DNA of 62,969 nucleotides, counting the filler. It is 5 parts of 5 records of this genome, joined end to end, with 100 filler letters (N's around TTAATTAATTAA, not from the genome) between each part and the next. Parts side by side here need not be neighbours in the genome. Positions count along the whole stretch, not along the records: positions 1 to 8,858 come from SRR31156797_25138; 4 more parts are not named here. One strand, 5' to 3'. The translations under genes and the position numbers were made by a program. The notes beneath the pieces were generated by a model. The model had not been told where the DNA came from. It made no database searches and saw only the letters and a list, made by a program, of their open reading frames with translations. Positions within the stretch are counted from its first letter, which is position 1, and each line of letters opens with the position of its first letter. Shown here piece after piece: positions 1-57,686 of this stretch.

Positions 1-1
1 A

Positions 2-3000
2 GTGGCCTATGACAACTCCAGCGAGCATGGCATGGGCGCAGTGGCAGATGCCATCAACCAGCTCAGTGACACGCTGGGTATCTCAGCCTCGGCAACAGTC
101 CAATCCACCACCTCCCTGAACCTTGCTGCCGGAACTACGGACAAAGGGTTTTCCATAAACGGCGTTACCATCGGGCAGGTCGATGTACAAACCAATGACT
201 CGGACGGCGCATTGGTCAAGGCCATTAACAGTAAAACCTCCGGCCACGGTATTGTGGCCTCCGTGGACTCAGCCGGATACCTGACCTTGACATCCAGTGA
301 TGACCGGGCGATTAAGGTTGAAACCGGAGGCACTGGAACCGAAGAGGTACTCCGGGACACTGATATGACCACTGCCGGGTATGTTACGTTGAACCAAACA
401 GGTTCCAGTGAAATCATTGTCAACAATGTGGGCGGCGGTGCGGCCGTGGCTCTAACCAGTGACCTGGAGGTCGGAAACAATACAGACGCCACTACGACGG
501 AATCTACTATTAAGTCCGGATCGACTTTAACGGACGGTTCCGTTCTCGGGGCAGGCTGGACAACGGGTCAGGACCTGTCAGGGGAAAATTTTTCCAACAG
601 CAATATCACTACCACCCAGGACTCCACCCTTAAAGCGGGTTCGGTCATTTCGGCCAATAGTACACTGGCAGCCGGCTCTGAACTGACAGGGGATGTCACT
701 GTGGGTGTAGATACATCCACCACCACCAGTGAAAGTATCATCGCAAAGAACTCCACACTAAAAGCAGATACGGAAATCGGCGCTGGAACCGTCATCGGCG
801 GCGATTTAACGGTTAAAACCACAACGGCTTCCACGGTGGAAGATTCAACAATTAAAGAAGGCTCCATCCTCGCGGAAGATAGTATTATTGCCCAAGGAAC
901 CAAAATCGGTGGCGATATTGCCATTAAAGGCAACACGGCCGCCACAACAACGGACAGCACCATTACAGCCCTGTCCACAATCGGCTCGGACTCGACCATT
1001 ACCGCAGGCTCGGTTCTTGGCGCAGATTTCACAAACAAAGGGGCCACGGCCGTGACCACAGGCGACAGTATGATCAAAGCCGGGTCTCAACTTTCTTCAA
1101 CTGCAGTTATCGGGGCGGGATCCGTACTTGGGGGCAACTTTACCCTCGGGGCCGGTGTCACCATAAGTGACGACAGCACCATTGCGGCCACGACTACTTT
1201 TGCCTCCAACGCCACCATAAAGGAAGGGACAATCCTGGGTGGTGATGTAGTGGGATCTGGAGCCACGGCAACCACAGCCGACTCCATCCTTACAGCCGGA
1301 TCAACAATTCAAAGTGGCAGCACCGTAGAGGCCGGGTCAGTTTTCAGTCAGAAAATCCAGATCAAAGATGGCGCCACCGCAACCACAGCATCTTCACTTA
1401 TTACAAATGGCTCCCAGTTCGACAACGGATCTACTCTGAAAGCCGGAACCGTTTTAACAAATGATCTGGTCGGCACCGACGGTGCCATCAAGGCTTCTGC
1501 AGGCACCTTAGGTACAGACCTTGTACTTGATGCGGATTCCAATGTGGTCGGTACTGTTGAACTTGCACTCGGTTCAATTCTGACCAGTTCGACGCAGCTT
1601 GCCGCAGGTTCATATGTGGCCACTGACACCACAGTAGATGAGAACGCTACTTTGACTGCGGAGATGACCATGAAAGCCGGTTCTTCTTTTGCATCATCTT
1701 CTAATTTTGCCAGAGGATCAAGCTTGGGGGGTGATATTGTCACCTCTGGTACGACGACTCTGGATGTCGAAATGTCCTTAAAATCAGGATCAGTCATTAG
1801 TGGTGGTTCTGCACTGAAAACAGAGTCACAAATTTTTGCAGATCTTACTACAAGTGGAGCGACGGTGACCACGACCAATGACATGATCCTTACTGCGGGA
1901 TCAAAGATCGCAAGTTCCTCCACCCTGACCGCCGATTCTTACTTACAGGCAGATATTGTCACCTCTGGTGGCGGTACGGAATTGAGCAATAGCATGACGT
2001 TGAAGGCGGGATCAATTCTCGACGATGACTCAATTCTGAAAGAAGGGTCTGTTCTGGGTACAGATTTCACAGCCAGCGGAACTTCTACCATGACCGGCGA
2101 CATGACCCTAAAGGCCGGATCTAAAATAGCTGACGACACTATCCTTGAAACCGGGTCTTCCCTTGGAACGGATTTTATTATGAAGTCCGATGCCACTCTG
2201 GACCAAGAGATGACCATGCAGGCCGGGTCTGTCATTAAATCCGGTGCCGTTCTCAAAGCCGGTTCCCAGGTGGGGGCAGATGTTGAGAACAGCAATAACA
2301 TCACTCTGTCAGAAGATGCCGACATTATGTCAGGTTCCAAGCTCAAGGTAAGCAGTTCAATGAACATTGTCGAAGGTTCCACAGTAGGCGGCACAGCGAA
2401 CTTGGACGGGGATTTGGCCCTGACAGGTGATATGACCCTGGGTGTAGGCTCCATCATTATGTCAGATTCCGTTCTTACCGACGGCTCAACATTCGGTGCG
2501 GCCATTACCCTGGAAAACGATGAAACCGTTGACACGGGCACTGACATGATGCTCAAGCAGGGCTCTGTCCTTGCCGCAGGCTCAACCATTGCCGAAGGCA
2601 CCTACCTGACAAGTGACTTCACCACGGCCGACGGTACCCTGTATACTGCAGGTACAATCCTGGAAAAGGACATCACAACAGATTCCGACGTGACTCTGGC
2701 AGCCGACATGACCCTGCAGAACGGTTCTGTAATGAAAGCCGGTACCGAGCTTGCGGCCAACGATGCGTCCAGTGACTTTGCCACGGCAAAGATGAGTGAC
2801 TCCGAAGTCAACCGCCTGTCCGACCTGAGCGTTCTGACCCAGGAAGATGCCCAGAAGGCCATCGCTATTGCCGATGCCGCCCTAAAGGATCTGGATAAGA
2901 ACAGGGCTGACCTTGGTTCCGTTCAGAACCAGCTGACCTCAACCGTTGCCAACATTACCACCACCCGTGTAAATGTGGCCTCTGCGGAATCCACCATCCG

Positions 3001-3124
3001 TGACGTTGACTTTGCAGAAGAATCTGCCAACTTCACCAAGATGCAGGTATTGCAGCAGGCAGGCAGTTTTGCCATGAGCCAGGCCAACGCCAGCTCCCAG
3101 ACCGTTATGACCCTGCTCCAATAA
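2..3124 (+). CDS. fliC: Giant flagellin, 5'-truncated by the window edge, with a ~760-aa repeat insertion
   Basis: C-terminus [30 protein letters not shown]...[47 protein letters not shown] is the flagellin C-terminal D0/D1 domain. The N-terminal part (INGVTIG...[12 protein letters not shown]...GIVASVD) resembles Flagellin_IN modules. Followed by fliD and fliS. Confidence 0.96.
488..2764 (+). repeat. Intragenic protein repeat: about 20 units of 36-37 aa with hexapeptide [LIVM]-x-x-x-[ST]-x sub-periodicity
   Basis: Units read directly, e.g. [108 protein letters not shown]. Confidence 0.9.
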
Positions 3125-3172
3125 TGCAACCGTCTTAACAGAAACCACTAACCGCGCCTGACCACCTCAGCC

Positions 3173-3207
3173 AAAGCCCCGGAAATTAAATTTCCGGGGC
3201 TTTTTTT
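3173..3207 (+). terminator. Rho-independent terminator after fliC
   Basis: AAAGCCCCGGAAA-ttaaa-TTTCCGGGGCTTT followed by a T-run. Confidence 0.88.
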
Positions 3208-3208
3208 C

Positions 3209-3235
3209 TTAGGTTTTCCCCCGGCCATCCGATAT
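3209..3235 (+). promoter_or_regulatory. Putative sigma-28 (FliA) promoter of fliD
   Basis: TTAGGTTT-N11-TCCGATAT versus consensus TAAAGTTT-N11-GCCGATAA (6/8 and 6/8, exact spacing), just upstream of fliD. Confidence 0.65.
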
Positions 3236-3270
3236 ATTAAATATGAACCTAAACCAAACGGAGGTTGACC

Positions 3271-4953
3271 ATGGCAGGATCAATTACAACATTGGGGCTG
3301 GGTTCCGGCCTTGAACTCCAGGACATTCTGGACCAGTTAAAAGAGGTGGACCAAGCCGCCATCACGTCTAAAGAGACCCAAAAAACACAACTTCAGGACA
3401 AAATCGACGCATACAACAGCGTCAACGCCAAGTTGTTCAATATTAAATCTAATGCCTTGTCTCTCTCCCTTGAATCCGATTTTTTAAAGACATCAGTATC
3501 CGTTTCCGATGAAGATATCGCCTCAGCCACGGCAAACGACGGTATTACCGCTGAAAGCTTTGATCTCAATGTGACAAAAAAGGCACGGTACAACTCCTGG
3601 CAGACCGTTGGTGTGGACAGTGGCTCTTCGCCCTTTTACCCCGCACCCGAATCCGGCATTGCCAGTGCGGAGGAAAGCGTCACCACCACAGGCCAGACCT
3701 ATGATATTCTTTACGGCGCAGCCGAAAGCCAGCAGACCATTTCGGTCAGTGTGGATCCCGGGCAAGACCTGAACCAGATTGCTGAAGCCATCAATGATTC
3801 GGAAAACAACAAGGATGATGACGGCACCCAGCTGGTAAACGCCTCTGTGGAAAAAAACGATGATGACGAATATTATATCCGGCTGTCGGCCGTTGCCGGG
3901 GGGGACAGTGTGGATGAGCAGGTCAGCCTGGTAGGATTTGACTATATAAAACCGGACACAACCTTCAGCATTTCCCGGGCGGACAATGAAGATCCCATGT
4001 ATGTCAGCCTGGCGCCGGGTGCCACCTATTCAGATACCGTTGCCGCCATCAACGCGGGCACTGGCAATCCCGGTGTGACTGCCACCCTGGTGGATACCGG
4101 CCTGGGAGATACCCCCTACCGCCTGACCCTGACCTCCGATGATACAGGGGAAGAGGGCAGGATTACCGTTTCCGAGAACCTGCCCATGACACAGGTTAAC
4201 GGAGCCGATGGAGACTCCCTGAATTCAGCCTTCACGGTGAACGGGGTCGAATACCAGCGCCAGACCAATGACGCCATCACCGACGTGATTTCAGGGGTGA
4301 CCCTGAACCTGAAAAAAACAGGTGAGACCACCATCGGTATCCAGAAAGACACTGAAGCGGTAAAGGAGAACATCACTGCCCTGGTGGAAAACTTTAATGA
4401 ACTGCTCAGCACCATTGCAGAAGAGTCAGGGGATACCGACATCGATACCGACAATGATACAGTGGCCCCCTTGGAAAATGACTACAGCATCACGGGAATG
4501 ATCTCCACCTTTAAGAATCAGTTCACAACCACGATAAACCTTCCTTCGGAATTTACCAGTCTTATGGACATCGGTCTTGGGCTTAATCAGGACGGAACCT
4601 TCTCCCTGGACGAGGATGAACTGGATCAGGCCCTGGCCTCCAATGCAGACGCGGTAACCGCCCTTTTTATCGGAAACAAGGACTCCGGCATAACAGGATT
4701 AGGCGATATTCTCAATGACGGAATCACGGATATGGTATCATCCACCGGGGTAGTGACAACGGCAATTGATGAAGCCGAGGCAAGGATAACCCGCCTCACC
4801 GAAAATATCGAAACCACCACCGAACAGCTGGACAAGCGGTATGAGACTATGGCGGAAACCTTTATTCGCCTGGACACCACGATACAGCAGTTGAATTCGC
4901 AATCTGCCTATATGGAGTCCATGATAGAATCTTTTAATGCAACCATGGAATAA
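3271..4953 (+). CDS. fliD: Flagellar filament cap protein FliD
   Basis: N-terminal ITTLGLGSGLELQDILDQL; TNDAITDVISGVTLNLKK; C-terminal QLDKRYETMAETFIRLDTTIQQLNSQ. GGAGG at 3260 favours ATG 3271. Confidence 0.95.
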   Translation: MAGSITTLGLGSGLELQDILDQLKEVDQAAITSKETQKTQLQDKIDAYNSVNAKLFNIKSNALSLSLESDFLKTSVSVSDEDIASATANDGITAESFDLNVTKKARYNSWQTVGVDSGSSPFYPAPESGIASAEESVTTTGQTYDILYGAAESQQTISVSVDPGQDLNQIAEAINDSENNKDDDGTQLVNASVEKNDDDEYYIRLSAVAGGDSVDEQVSLVGFDYIKPDTTFSISRADNEDPMYVSLAPGATYSDTVAAINAGTGNPGVTATLVDTGLGDTPYRLTLTSDDTGEEGRITVSENLPMTQVNGADGDSLNSAFTVNGVEYQRQTNDAITDVISGVTLNLKKTGETTIGIQKDTEAVKENITALVENFNELLSTIAEESGDTDIDTDNDTVAPLENDYSITGMISTFKNQFTTTINLPSEFTSLMDIGLGLNQDGTFSLDEDELDQALASNADAVTALFIGNKDSGITGLGDILNDGITDMVSSTGVVTTAIDEAEARITRLTENIETTTEQLDKRYETMAETFIRLDTTIQQLNSQSAYMESMIESFNATME

Positions 4954-4983
4954 CCATTATTAATCGAGGACAGGGGGAAATCA

Positions 4984-5511
4984 ATGATCGCCCAGGTAAA
5001 TACCTACCTAACCAACCATTATGAGGGCATGACGCCGGAACAGCTTATTCTCTTATTGTTCAAGGGGACCTTGGACCGTATCGAACTGGCCCGGCAGGGG
5101 ATAAGGGAAAACGATCTGCAAAAACGGGGCGAAAATCTTAGTAAAGTCATTGCCATCATTTCCGAATTGAATACATCCGTGAACACGGAAATGCAGGACG
5201 AGGGAACCCAGTTTCTCAGAGGGCTTTACGAAGCGATTCTGACTGAACTGCCCAAGGTGTCCATTACCAACGATAGCAGTATCCTTGACCGTACGGAAAA
5301 ATATATCACTAGGCTCAAAGAAATTTGGGAAACCGATGTTATGCCCGGCCAAGGCCAGGATACAGGGTCAGCAACCCAAGTAAAACCCCGGGCATCTGTC
5401 CCGGCTAAAAAAAATGGTACGCCTGCACCAATGCCCATGGCCTCCATGCCCCCGGCAGCGGCCTACGGCAGCCAAGGCGGCGTAAAACGGTTCAACAGTA
5501 TATCCGTTTAA
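4984..5511 (+). CDS. fliS: Flagellin export chaperone FliS with C-terminal low-complexity extension
   Basis: MTPEQLILLLFKG...KRGENLSKVIAIISELNTSV...LRGLY...LKEIWE; position after fliD. Confidence 0.9.
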   Translation: MIAQVNTYLTNHYEGMTPEQLILLLFKGTLDRIELARQGIRENDLQKRGENLSKVIAIISELNTSVNTEMQDEGTQFLRGLYEAILTELPKVSITNDSSILDRTEKYITRLKEIWETDVMPGQGQDTGSATQVKPRASVPAKKNGTPAPMPMASMPPAAAYGSQGGVKRFNSISV

Positions 5512-5546
5512 CCCCTGAATCAAGTAGATAAGCAGGAATAAGACAA

Positions 5547-5951
5547 ATGAGCATGGAAATTACCGGCCTGAAACAGGCCATAGAAAAATTAGGCGTATTA
5601 AACGAGGCACATATTGCTTCTTTTGACAGTGAATTATTGCCGGACCTTGACGCCCAGGCCCGGGAGCGCACCAGAGAATTCTCAAAGATGAAGGGACATG
5701 TTGACAAACTTATTCGCGAAATGACAGAAATAAAGGACGAAAACACCATCCGGCAGGTTAAGGAAATTGTGTCGGCTGTTCAGGAACTTGTGATGCAGAA
5801 CAAATGCCTCGAATCCAGGATCAGGGAGCATAGAAACCGACTGGAAGCCAGCATGAAACGGGTCAACCATGGCAAAAAAGCAATCCATGGATATGGTGCG
5901 GCAGCATCAAAGGGGCACTGCTCCAACAAAGTGATCGCCATCACAAATTGA
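5547..5951 (+). CDS. Helical flagellar chaperone-like protein (FliT/FlgN-like)
   Basis: 134-aa coiled-coil protein after fliD-fliS, ending LEASMKRVNHGKKAIHGYG. Assignment mostly from gene order. Confidence 0.5.
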   Translation: MSMEITGLKQAIEKLGVLNEAHIASFDSELLPDLDAQARERTREFSKMKGHVDKLIREMTEIKDENTIRQVKEIVSAVQELVMQNKCLESRIREHRNRLEASMKRVNHGKKAIHGYGAAASKGHCSNKVIAITN

Positions 5952-6133
5952 CTGTCAGGAAGCAACAATGAATATTACAATATCCTTCAGACGGGTACCG
6001 GGGATTCGGTACAAAAAGTTGCTGGCCGGCATTATCTTTGACCAGTCTGTGTAACTATCTCCACAATAGTTGACAGCCGTTCCACGGAATGGCCCAGATA
6101 AGTCTTAATTTTTATCTGATGGACGATTTCACT

Positions 6134-6571
6134 TCATTGCCGGGCCAGGACGTCATGCTGGTGGGAATAGCCGGAATCTGAAAGAATCACCTGAACCGCT
6201 TCATTTATTTTCGTATTGATTACCAGTGGCCCCATGAGGTTGGCTGTGATTCGGGTACCGGACTCATGCTTGGAAACATTAACGACAACGTAAATCGCAA
6301 TATCTTCAGGTGAAACCCCGTTCCAACCCTTGCCTTTAATAGCGTCTTTCAGTTCAATTTTATAATCGGGCATGAACAGGAAGGGATTGATAATAATCAA
6401 AGAAATATTGGAATCTTCCAGGGATTGAAGCCAGCAAAAAGGGGCATTTTGGGGATCTTCAAAAACCGTGAACTTGTAAAACGCCTCAAATCCTGGAAGC
6501 CCTTCGGGAAAGAACAATACTGTGGTTTCATCAATCTCAACCTCACCGAATCTTCTAGTTGAAATTTTCAC
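6134..6571 (-). CDS. fliW: Flagellar assembly factor FliW
   Basis: TRRFGEVEI...FPEGLPGFE...FCWLQS...NPF...TANLMGPLVIN; adjacent to csrA. Confidence 0.95.
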   Translation of the reverse strand: MKISTRRFGEVEIDETTVLFFPEGLPGFEAFYKFTVFEDPQNAPFCWLQSLEDSNISLIIINPFLFMPDYKIELKDAIKGKGWNGVSPEDIAIYVVVNVSKHESGTRITANLMGPLVINTKINEAVQVILSDSGYSHQHDVLARQ

Positions 6572-6576
6572 TGGCT

Positions 6577-6819
6577 CTACTCCTTGGAATGCCTGTTTTT
6601 AAAAAGTTCAAAAGCGTCTGAGATCTCATCCATATGTCCTGAAGCGGCCTCAATATTTTCTTGCTCAATTTTCTCGAAGACCTCCATTCTCAAAATATTG
6701 ACCTCTTTAGGGGCCTCTATCCCTACTTTTACGGTTGTGCCCTCAACTTTAAGGATATTGACCACAATATCCCTGCCGATCTTGATTGTTTCCCCGGATT
6801 TTCTGCTGAGTACGAGCAT
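6577..6819 (-). CDS. csrA: Carbon storage regulator CsrA (FliW-partner type)
   Basis: MLVLSRKSGETIKIG...VKVGIEAPKEVNILRMEV...IEQENIEAA. Confidence 0.96.
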   Translation of the reverse strand: MLVLSRKSGETIKIGRDIVVNILKVEGTTVKVGIEAPKEVNILRMEVFEKIEQENIEAASGHMDEISDAFELFKNRHSKE

Positions 6820-6829
6820 ATAAAGTTTC

Positions 6830-7133
6830 CTATCCTAAATAATCCACCAGGCTCAGGTTAAGTATTTGTGAAGTGGCACTCAACGCCGCCTGCTAGGCAA
6901 TTTCAACGTTCTTAAGCTCCACAATGGAAGCTACGATATCCGCATCCTCAATCATAGTCCTGCACTCGGTAAGGCTTTGATTCACCTCACTGGTAATAGT
7001 TTTTCAGGCCTCAAGGCGGCTGTACTTCATGCCGATGTCCACAATCCTTGATGTCATAGTTCTATTCCAGGCGGTTAATGGTCCGACCGACACCATCGAC
7101 ATCATTAGTGGACAAATAGGATTTCAAATTATC
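6830..7133 (-). pseudogene. flgL: Degraded 3' fragment of flgL (hook-associated protein 3)
   Basis: Manual minus-strand translation: DNLKSYLSTNDVDGVGRTINRLE* / frameshift / TMTSRIVDIGMKYSRLEA*KTITSEVNQSLTECRTMIEDADIVASIVELKNVEIA*QAALSATSQILNLSLVDYLG*. This is the FlgL C-terminal signature with stops at 7064-7062, 7006-7004 and 6895-6893, in the usual flgL-csrA-fliW position. Confidence 0.85.
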
Positions 7134-7143
7134 TCTTTTGATG

Positions 7144-8154
7144 TCATATATTATAGATGTCTGTTTTAAACTGTGAAAGGTTGTAAGGGTCGGTATACCA
7201 TTCAATGCAGTGTTCAAGTCCTTTTTCAAAGCCATTGATTCCTGCGTATCCGGGTTGCCAGCCGGTGAACTCTTTTATTTTGCTGTTATCTGCCCATAAC
7301 CGGTTGACCTCGCTTTTTTCAGGTCTTAAACGTGCTTCATCCGATATGATTTCGATCTCTTTATTCATAAGCCGGGCAATGATGTTGGCCGTATCTCCTA
7401 TGGATACTTCATAATTACTTCCTGCATTCATTGTTTTGCCTGTTGTCGTGTCGGATTCGGCAATTTTGATAAATGCTTCGGTAATGTCATCCACAAAGTT
7501 GAAATCCCTGGTAGGGCTGAGGGCGCCCAATTTTATTTTTTGGTTTCCTGTGGCAATCTGGGTGATAAGTGTGGGGATGACGGCCCGCAGAGACTGCCTG
7601 GGGCCATAGGTGTTAAACGGCCGAATTGTTGCCACCGGTGTATCAAAGGATGTAAAAAAAGACCAGGCGATCTGGTCTGCCCCGATTTTCGAAGCCGAAT
7701 AGGGGGATTGGCCTTGCAAGGGGTGTTCCTCAGTTATGGGAACAAATTGCGCGGTGCCGTAAACCTCGCTGGTGGAGGTGTGGACTACTTTTTCAATATC
7801 ATGGGTCCTGGCAGCCTGCATGACGTTAAGGGTGCCTTTTATGTTTGTGTCAATATAGGTGGCCGGGGAATGGTATGAATAGGGGATGGCAATAAGCGCC
7901 GCCAAATGGAAAACAACATCACAGCCTTCAACGGCCGTACTGACACCAAAAGGATCACGAACATCACCGGCAAAAATTTCCACCTGTGTTTTTATATCCG
8001 CCGGTGCATGGTCCAACCAGCCCCAGGAGTTAAAGGAATTATAGTAAACAAAAGCCTTTACCCGACATCCTTTGTTTACCAGTTTTTCCGTGAGATGGGA
8101 GCCGATAAATCCGTCAGCACCGGTGATTAGGATATTTTTATTTTCAAGTTTCAT
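7144..8154 (-). CDS. NAD-dependent nucleotide-sugar 4,6-dehydratase, LegB-like
   Basis: ITGADGFIGSHL, HLAALIAIPYSY, STSEVYG, YSASK, RPFNTYGPRQS. AGGAGGA RBS favours ATG 8154. Confidence 0.85.
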   Translation of the reverse strand: MKLENKNILITGADGFIGSHLTEKLVNKGCRVKAFVYYNSFNSWGWLDHAPADIKTQVEIFAGDVRDPFGVSTAVEGCDVVFHLAALIAIPYSYHSPATYIDTNIKGTLNVMQAARTHDIEKVVHTSTSEVYGTAQFVPITEEHPLQGQSPYSASKIGADQIAWSFFTSFDTPVATIRPFNTYGPRQSLRAVIPTLITQIATGNQKIKLGALSPTRDFNFVDDITEAFIKIAESDTTTGKTMNAGSNYEVSIGDTANIIARLMNKEIEIISDEARLRPEKSEVNRLWADNSKIKEFTGWQPGYAGINGFEKGLEHCIEWYTDPYNLSQFKTDIYNI

Positions 8155-8288
8155 CAATCCTCCTAATTGAAGCCGTACGTTGGATACTTCGCAACGGTGC
8201 CTAGTGGAAATTATTGCCAACCGACAGAGGAATATGGCTACGCTAAGGAACGGGTTTTAAATAACTTGCGTATTTTTGCTATATCCCA

Positions 8289-8313
8289 GAGCGCGGGCGG
8301 GACGCCCGCGCTC
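8289..8313. repeat. GC-rich REP-like palindrome
   Basis: GAGCGCGGGCG-GGA-CGCCCGCGCTC, a perfect 11-bp stem in AT-rich intergenic DNA with no T-tail. Confidence 0.5.
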
Positions 8314-8648
8314 CAAGTTAAATTATTTCGGACTCATTCTAAATGTCAACAGAACCTATAATGTTTCTTCTAAATTTTGTGATTATATTATCAACGTTTA
8401 AATTTATCCAGTCATAAAAACTTGATCATCGCGGGAAAATTGTCTTTGCCATGGCGCCTACGCATTGAAGTGTTCCTTTCAGATTGGCCAAAATTACTGA
8501 AACCAATTCAAGCCAATACAAACGCGCCGCGCAAAGATGCCGCTGCGGTCATCGCCAGCCTTTGGGAACTGTTCCGTACATTAAAAAAGAAAGGCGGTCC
8601 TGTGGAAACCGGTTCTGGATGAGTGACAAAATTCAATTAACGTCACAC

Positions 8649-8692
8649 AAAAAAAACGCCTGCTTCACTCAAAGAGTAAAGCAGGCGTTTTT
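8649..8692. terminator. Bidirectional Rho-independent terminator
   Basis: AAAAACGCCTGCTT...AAGCAGGCGTTTTT with A- and T-runs on either side. Confidence 0.8.
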
Positions 8693-8713
8693 CGTCTTTA
8701 CACATGCTAAATA

Positions 8714-8857
8714 TCAGTGATGGGAATCACCTTTATCATTGACCGTGTCATAGGCCGCCTTAAGAAAGCAATAGGTCATGCCCGCCCCTAAAATGGCAAT
8801 TGCATACCAGAATCCACCGAAAAAAATTGCATGGCCGATGTCCCAGGCCCATTCAAA
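8714..8857 (-). CDS. 3' part of a small membrane protein, truncated by the contig edge; absent from the ORF track
   Basis: FEWAWDIGHAIFFGGFWYAIAILGAGMTYCFLKAAYDTVNDKGDSHH*; one hydrophobic helix, ending just before the terminator. Confidence 0.6.
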   Translation of the reverse strand, partial: FEWAWDIGHAIFFGGFWYAIAILGAGMTYCFLKAAYDTVNDKGDSHH

Positions 8858-8858
8858 A

Positions 8859-8958
8859 NNNNNNNNNNNNNNNNNNNNNNNNNNNNNNNNNNNNNNNNNN
8901 NNTTAATTAATTAANNNNNNNNNNNNNNNNNNNNNNNNNNNNNNNNNNNNNNNNNNNN
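8859..8958. other. Artificial contig spacer
   Basis: 44 N + TTAATTAATTAA (stops in all six frames) + 44 N. Confidence 0.99.
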
Positions 8959-26676: not shown

Positions 26677-26776
26677 NNNNNNNNNNNNNNNNNNNNNNNN
26701 NNNNNNNNNNNNNNNNNNNNTTAATTAATTAANNNNNNNNNNNNNNNNNNNNNNNNNNNNNNNNNNNNNNNNNNNN
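26677..26776. other. Artificial contig spacer
   Basis: 44 N + TTAATTAATTAA + 44 N. Confidence 0.99.
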
Positions 26777-44896: not shown

Positions 44897-44996
44897 NNNN
44901 NNNNNNNNNNNNNNNNNNNNNNNNNNNNNNNNNNNNNNNNTTAATTAATTAANNNNNNNNNNNNNNNNNNNNNNNNNNNNNNNNNNNNNNNNNNNN
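44897..44996. other. Artificial contig spacer
   Basis: 44 N + TTAATTAATTAA + 44 N. Confidence 0.99.
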
Positions 44997-57586: not shown

Positions 57587-57686
57587 NNNNNNNNNNNNNN
57601 NNNNNNNNNNNNNNNNNNNNNNNNNNNNNNTTAATTAATTAANNNNNNNNNNNNNNNNNNNNNNNNNNNNNNNNNNNNNNNNNNNN
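57587..57686. other. Artificial contig spacer
   Basis: 44 N + TTAATTAATTAA + 44 N. Confidence 0.99.

Follow-up and report, generated by a model that had tools for sequence, protein, structure and literature searches.

A giant flagellin carrying a hexapeptide-repeat insert with two matched arms, predicted to form a two-stranded antiparallel beta-helix

Giant flagellins, as defined by Thomson et al. 2018 (PMC6248924), exceed 1000 amino acids (aa) and grow by internal duplication. In the accessible part of that paper, the DE repeats of these proteins are described as duplicated globular units in Oceanospirillales and no hexad solenoid is mentioned, and the authors ask how a repeat can be reconciled with flagellin's out-and-back topology. 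The left-handed beta-helix (LbH) acyltransferases LpxA, LpxD and GlmU (PF00132) have a six-residue period with a hydrophobic residue at position 1, Gly, Asp or Asn at position 4 and a small residue at position 5, and complete a turn every 18 residues. Here we analysed a flagellin gene at the start of a 62,969-nucleotide stretch of DNA (the window), whose product shares size and duplicative growth with the former proteins and, in a long internal insert, all of these repeat features with the latter. We propose, with a probability of about 0.7 and on sequence-derived evidence, that this insert is a beta-hairpin ribbon coiled into a two-stranded antiparallel helix on a filament flagellin.

The open reading frame (ORF) occupies positions 2..3124 (+) and is truncated at its 5' end by the window edge; it was identified from the ORF itself, PF00700 and alignment to a 1247-aa Desulfobacter latus flagellin (67% identical). 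Since residue 207 of the D. latus protein is the counterpart of the first residue here, about 206 residues of D0/D1/D2 lie beyond the edge, and the full-length protein would be about 1246 aa. The earlier note on this DNA had called it a giant flagellin of more than 1040 aa even without its N-terminal part, and this holds: 1040 aa lie within the window alone, above the 1000-aa mark of giant flagellins. Flagellin_C (PF00700) matches aa 955-1039 (2864..3118, +; C-terminal D1/D0 helices) with an E-value of 6e-26 and 91 bits against a cut-off of 23. The N-terminal D0/D1 helices (PF00669) are carried by the D. latus protein, and the corresponding part here falls outside the window. The best NCBIfam matches are flagellin A/B, with FlgL far weaker, which identifies a flagellin and not FlgL. 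Residues 1-145 (2..436, +) form outer domains D2/D3 of the Helicobacter/Campylobacter type.

The insert spans aa 151-922 (452..2767, +) and comprises 124 hexads, or 20.7 units of 36-37 aa. The count of about 20 units given earlier was thus right, while the repeat begins upstream of the 488..2764 interval first assigned to it. Compared with 200 shuffles, self-identity peaks at lags of 6 (z 8.2), 12, 36 (z 8.8), 37 (z 10.8), 73 and 74 residues, in agreement with the 6- and 36-37-residue periods originally read by eye. Residues 163-921 are rich in Thr (16.9%), Ser (13.4%), Gly (12.3%), Ala (10.7%) and Asp (8.0%), contain zero Pro, Cys or His and carry a net charge of -56, which bears out the described composition, including the lack of Pro and Cys. 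Exactly six residues make up 112/124 hexads, and 103/124 begin with L, I, V, M, F or Y. The proposed pattern [LIV]-x-x-x-[STAV]-x is only partly borne out: Pfam Hexapep (PF00132) reaches 93.8 bits (cut-off 27) and LbH_EIF2B 73.8 (cut-off 54), so that the hexapeptide sequence pattern of LbH proteins is present, yet the strict form fits just 61 of the 124 hexads. Within each unit, H1-H3 are canonical hexads with Gly at position 4, whereas H4-H6 are mirror-type hexads with Asp at position 4 and often Gly at position 2. Variability is highest at outward positions (entropy 2.1-2.2 bits, versus 1.3-1.5 bits for inward positions); Thr fills 43% of hexad position 6, and Ser plus Thr amount to about 30%.

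Two short-hairpin units interrupt the hexad series and divide it into equal arms, all on the plus strand. The outgoing arm (aa 151-490; 452..1471) leads to a tip hairpin (aa 485-502; 1454..1507), at which the chain reverses into the returning arm (aa 498-874; 1493..2623). A base hairpin (aa 869-886; 2606..2659) is followed by a C-terminal piece (aa 881-922; 2642..2767) that rises to the insert's entry point. With this piece counted in the outgoing arm, each arm has 62 hexads. In a short relative, P0037, the coevolution anti-diagonals i+j=943 and i+j=1274 have their centres at the tip and base hairpins, respectively, and both hairpins were mapped from there; the base hairpin also has a conserved motif, and a low-confidence model of the window protein has a predicted local distance difference test score (pLDDT) of 84-89 around it. 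In P0037 the C-terminal piece has a register z of 10.7 over 42 pairs. The insert is entered at an H4 hexad (aa 151) and left at an H3 hexad (aa 917-922), two hexad types that follow one another in the repeat.

A search with the insert retrieved 264 proteins, and among the matches listed 120 of 120 have a flagellin N or C domain; a query with a short member retrieved 430. The family set comprised 225 distinct inserts with both flanks present. It ranges over Desulfobacterota and sulfur-cycling Campylobacterota, with named carriers in Desulfobacter, Desulfobacula, Desulfospira, Desulfobotulus, Desulfurivibrio, Dissulfurimicrobium, Sulfurospirillum, Sulfurimonas and Sulfuricurvum, of which Desulfobacter, Desulfobacula, Desulfospira and Sulfurospirillum include cultured carriers. 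In the core tree the window flagellin clusters with two Desulfobacteraceae loci, and the window bacterium is of the sulfate-reducer type.

Both hairpins could be located in 222 of the 225 inserts (202 by rule, 20 by eye), of which 165 have the basic size, 56 are longer and one short member is marginal. Copy number does vary among relatives, as the earlier note had proposed to look for, and it varies in a paired manner: in 44 of the 56 long inserts both arms are lengthened to within one unit, by steps of +1 to +9. Arm lengths are related with a slope of 0.99 and r 0.99 in those 44, and with r 0.73 over all 56. Phylogenetic contrasts were computed on a 98-core tree (56 cores from long and 42 from short members) and yielded r 0.78 over 97 contrasts and r 0.98 over the 85 that remain without 12 exceptions. 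Rod length varies threefold among close relatives. Several loci (L008, L012, L017, L022, L027 and L045) hold two or three insert-bearing flagellin genes each, and in L012 flagellins of differing rod length (1290 and 1561 aa) lie on opposite strands.

The earlier picture was of one continuous left-handed beta-helix, here about 42 turns per subunit. The hexad pattern speaks for it, as does Pfam/PDB similarity to LpxD-type enzymes (best E 7.5e-05). However, such a helix would hold the two ends of the insert 20 nm apart although both join D2, and it leaves the equal arms, the hairpin units and the anti-diagonal coevolution described below unexplained. On these sequence grounds it appears largely refuted, and we consider it very improbable. 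Still less credible is an acyltransferase-like enzyme displayed on the filament: the matches to LpxD, LpxA and NeuD models are weak and fall below all NCBIfam cut-offs (LpxD 64.9 versus 242.5 bits; NeuD 74.4 versus 160.8), aa 163-921 hold no His, and there is no helical or Rossmann partner domain. A catalytic role of the insert is unlikely.

Mean-field direct-coupling analysis of 177 short inserts (effective number 139) placed the strongest long-range pairs on anti-diagonals centred at the two hairpins. The inter-arm antiparallel register reached z 20.2, with a spread of about 1.1 across 273 registers. A second register, displaced by +18 residues, reached z 8.2, as opposed to 0.1 at -18 and at most 1.9 in the remaining same-phase registers. 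For outward positions on the three faces, mean z was 1.5, 3.4 and 3.2 in the main register and 1.2, 1.6 and 0.7 in the +18 register. In contrast to the 1.5-3.4 of the antiparallel pairing, outward positions within an arm at i and i+18 gave a mean z of only 0.49; by coevolution in the short form, therefore, the parallel stacking of i on i+18 that marks LbH proteins is not the main contact. The top pair classes were H2.6-H4.6, H2.2-H5.4, H3.2-H4.4, H1.2-H6.4 (often Lys-Asp) and H1.6-H5.6; each of the three faces is represented, and the C-terminal piece shows these classes as strongly as either part of the outgoing arm. The mirror relation of H4-type hexads to H1-H3 follows from the inter-arm pairing of position 2 with position 4. 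In each of two non-overlapping sets (124 and 53 sequences; mutual information z 10.4 and 5.0) the main register came out on top, and it was lost in 8/8 controls (5/5 permutations, 3/3 swaps with near relatives). Additionally, just one H2 hexad bulges often, and the H5 that faces it bulges as well (123/123 bulged cases, versus 0/20 where H5 is regular), and the window protein likewise has its H2 bulge opposite a bulging H5.

The arms could instead form two ordinary parallel left-handed beta-helices, one per arm, lying antiparallel side by side in a rod about 10 nm long and of double thickness. Such an arrangement accounts for the equal arms and paired expansion, for the Hexapep match and within-arm i+18 signal, and for the one-chain helix of the low-confidence model. 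But each rod would touch its neighbour by one face, while the register is seen on all three; +18 and -18 should both appear, and only +18 does; i+18 stacking is far weaker than inter-arm pairing; and the register runs continuously out of both hairpins. We regard the side-by-side helices as unlikely. Contact on all faces, a one-sided +18 neighbour and weak i+18 stacking point to a two-start coiled hairpin ribbon.

The AlphaFold2 prediction for P0037 (75 sequences), judged by pLDDT, gave 83-97 over the insert and low-confidence linkers at both ends. The insert is thus not disordered in this short relative, disorder being the outcome that was earlier said to count against a folded spike. Several observations weigh against the coiled ribbon. 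The coevolution signal derives solely from the short form; within-arm signals are present and the +18 register is uneven; AlphaFold2 on the window protein (18 sequences) performed poorly (pLDDT 57.7) and drew the outgoing arm as a one-chain helix; and 12 of the 56 long inserts have unequal arms. Nine of these 12 were read by eye, and there the extra sequence has a hairpin-like motif of its own and resembles a self-closed side branch, which suggests branched rods with one or two extra hairpin modules inside an arm. The unequal-arm members are L017 (three paralogs), L019, L022 (two), P0076, P0096, P0139, P0145, P0189 and P0043. One further member, P0165 (1062 aa), has a HEXXH metalloprotease-like domain at about aa 640-890, inside the base hairpin loop of the rod. 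This domain scores 47.8 bits with NF038122, under the cut-off of 80, and P0165 is possibly a proteolytic flagellin on a rod scaffold.

In the coiled hairpin ribbon, the helix would have three faces and 18 residues per turn per strand. The chain would exit D2, wind outward, turn at the tip hairpin and wind back interleaved with the outgoing strand; after a second turn at the base hairpin it would climb about two turns and exit beside its entry. With entry and exit adjacent, a repeat protein would meet the out-and-back constraint of flagellin. Rod length would be set by adding one 36-aa unit per arm. At the standard spacing of 0.48 nm per strand, the rod of the window protein would be about 20 nm long, against about 8 nm for members of 800 aa and about 26 nm for the longest. 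Once the protein is exported, folding probably begins at the tip hairpin and zips up in the direction of the base. We infer this three-dimensional fold, its orientation and its assembly into filaments. Of the earlier beta-helix proposal, a hexad-based beta-solenoid with 18 residues per turn survives, here about 20 nm long, but the conventional one-way left-handed helix is not supported, as the halves pair antiparallel and expand together.

An assembly artefact behind the insert is unlikely, because no DNA tandem array was found within the flagellin gene, a public contig covers the stretch without differences, and the D. latus gene has an identical unit count. That one public contig may be the source of the window and hence not independent. 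Only bases 1-8858 of the window form a single contig, and N runs (8859-8958, 26677-26776, 44897-44996 and 57587-57686) join the further, separate pieces. Genes past 8958 (a sugar ABC transporter, microcompartment-like genes) are possibly neither neighbours of the flagellin gene nor from the same organism. A deeper contig from the same DNA run (run X1 record 4) contains a second flagellin end identical over 223 bases (window 2902-3124), as well as another flagellin that apparently lacks the insert; either a paralog or a co-occurring strain may account for this.

Downstream of the flagellin gene is a terminator-like hairpin with a T run (3173..3213, +), weak evidence on its own with one found versus 0.8 in shuffles. 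It is followed by the filament cap gene fliD (3271..4953, +; FliD_N and FliD_C above cut-off), the flagellin chaperone gene fliS (4984..5511, +; profile matches) and, on the minus strand, fliW and csrA (6134..6819), which control flagellin level. This order, flagellin and then fliD, fliS, fliW and csrA, is the gene context of a filament flagellin; fliD shares the locus with an insert-bearing flagellin in 12/28 related loci. A 134-aa ORF (5547-5951, +) lies at the customary position of fliT and has no clear Pfam match. Adjoining csrA and fliW, about 4 kb downstream of the flagellin gene, is a legB-type dehydratase gene (7144..8154, -; TIGR04180 525 bits, cut-off 475), a candidate for flagellin glycosylation. 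We take this enzyme to catalyse the first step of legionaminic-acid synthesis, and the location of its gene hints at legionaminic-acid glycosylation of the filament.

As to function, we tentatively suggest from the sequence features a non-catalytic, Ser/Thr-rich brush, probably nonulosonate-glycosylated, that would thicken the filament and shield it against phage fibres, grazers and fouling. A glycosylated steric brush is favoured by the variable outward positions, the Ser and Thr content, the threefold range of length, the unconserved charge, the nearby legB gene and the glycosylation of the nearest solved flagellins, which are modified on Ser/Thr according to the accessible part of 10.64898/2025.12.30.697013. 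A mainly mechanical rod is a weaker candidate, in which rods next to one another would make the filament thicker or brace it crosswise, for thrust in viscous sediment or biofilm. Giant flagellins do form thick filaments (PMC6248924) and outer-domain networks help motility in viscous media (PMC10256154), as far as the available parts of these papers go, and the sources of the RNA hits are sediment metatranscriptomes or metagenomes of unspecified origin; but the length variation and variable outward positions suit surface display better than a fixed lattice. RNA-library contigs of about 95% identity come from two studies and span 29/30 insert bins in each (4 of 17 runs compared); this is no proof of transcription.

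Somewhat more doubtful is a mineral adhesin, with ladders of Thr and Asp that would attach to surfaces of iron sulfide, iron oxide or sulfur. The Thr content of position 6 fits this idea, as does the acidity of the window insert (-7.6 per 100 aa; 21 of the 225 inserts are more acidic), and the available part of PMC11532411 puts forward a comparable idea for Geovibrio flagella. However, net charge spans -14 to +2 per 100 aa across the 225 inserts (median -3.9), a conserved outward patch was not seen, and glycans would cover the ladders. The acidic spike described in the earlier note is therefore acidic in this protein but not as a constant of the family, which weakens mineral binding as a general function.

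On balance we favour the view that a Hexapep-type repeat builds an undescribed two-stranded antiparallel triangular beta-helix with its ends side by side, lengthening solely by matched additions to the arms (8 to about 26 nm) and accepting side branches, even a metalloprotease, in its loops, so that the filament would bear a tunable bristle. The insert is a real and recurrent type of flagellin outer domain, new as a variant, and there is a fair chance that its solenoid topology is undescribed; our literature search turned up neither a hexapeptide flagellin of beta-helical build nor a solenoid with two strands, and the accessible part of PMC7018530 held nothing relevant. If true, it would show how a repeat solenoid meets the topological question raised by Thomson et al. 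2018, would add a topology for which that search gave no description, and would mean that a Hexapep match need not imply a parallel LbH. It would pose an evolutionary puzzle, with two distant parts of one gene having to expand in step, and such a rod, stiff and adjustable in length, with its ends adjacent and its loops tolerant, would be useful as a module for display or as a spacer.

Among solved flagellins, Helicobacter pylori FlaA/FlaB (PDB 9ygu, 9yh1) and Campylobacter jejuni FlaA (6x80) have no such rod. In the extra D4 domain of the latter, at about residues 405-460 of chain A, a few short Ser/Gly runs resemble hexads and align weakly to the last hexads of the insert, but D4 is not co-aligned (454/574) and probably sits in a different loop. 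The belief that no beta-solenoid flagellin had been described needs qualifying: in the available part of Fields et al. 2024 (PMC11532411), the outer domain of cluster 35 is also compared to a beta-helical enzyme, pectate trisaccharide lyase. That is a different family, with Gastranaerophilales-type members of about 560-690 aa, many with Glug/PF07581 (27/84 rows). PF07581 has no match on the window protein at E up to 1, and taxa and sizes differ, so the window protein does not belong to cluster 35 as given there. The parts of that source at hand do not describe the hexad-insert family in the text, and its table includes 0/4 hexad-insert accessions and no row naming PF00132; clusters 119 and 268, which fit in taxa and sizes, are possible candidates for this family. 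In comparison with the LbH acyltransferases, the insert is far longer and without catalytic His, half of its hexads are of the mirror type, and its strands most likely alternate between two antiparallel arms. The double-stranded beta-helix of cupins and jelly rolls is a beta-hairpin coiled on itself, with antiparallel strands from two halves of the chain. It is two-sided and compact with about two turns, whereas the rod predicted here is three-sided and repetitive, with 9-27 turns per arm.
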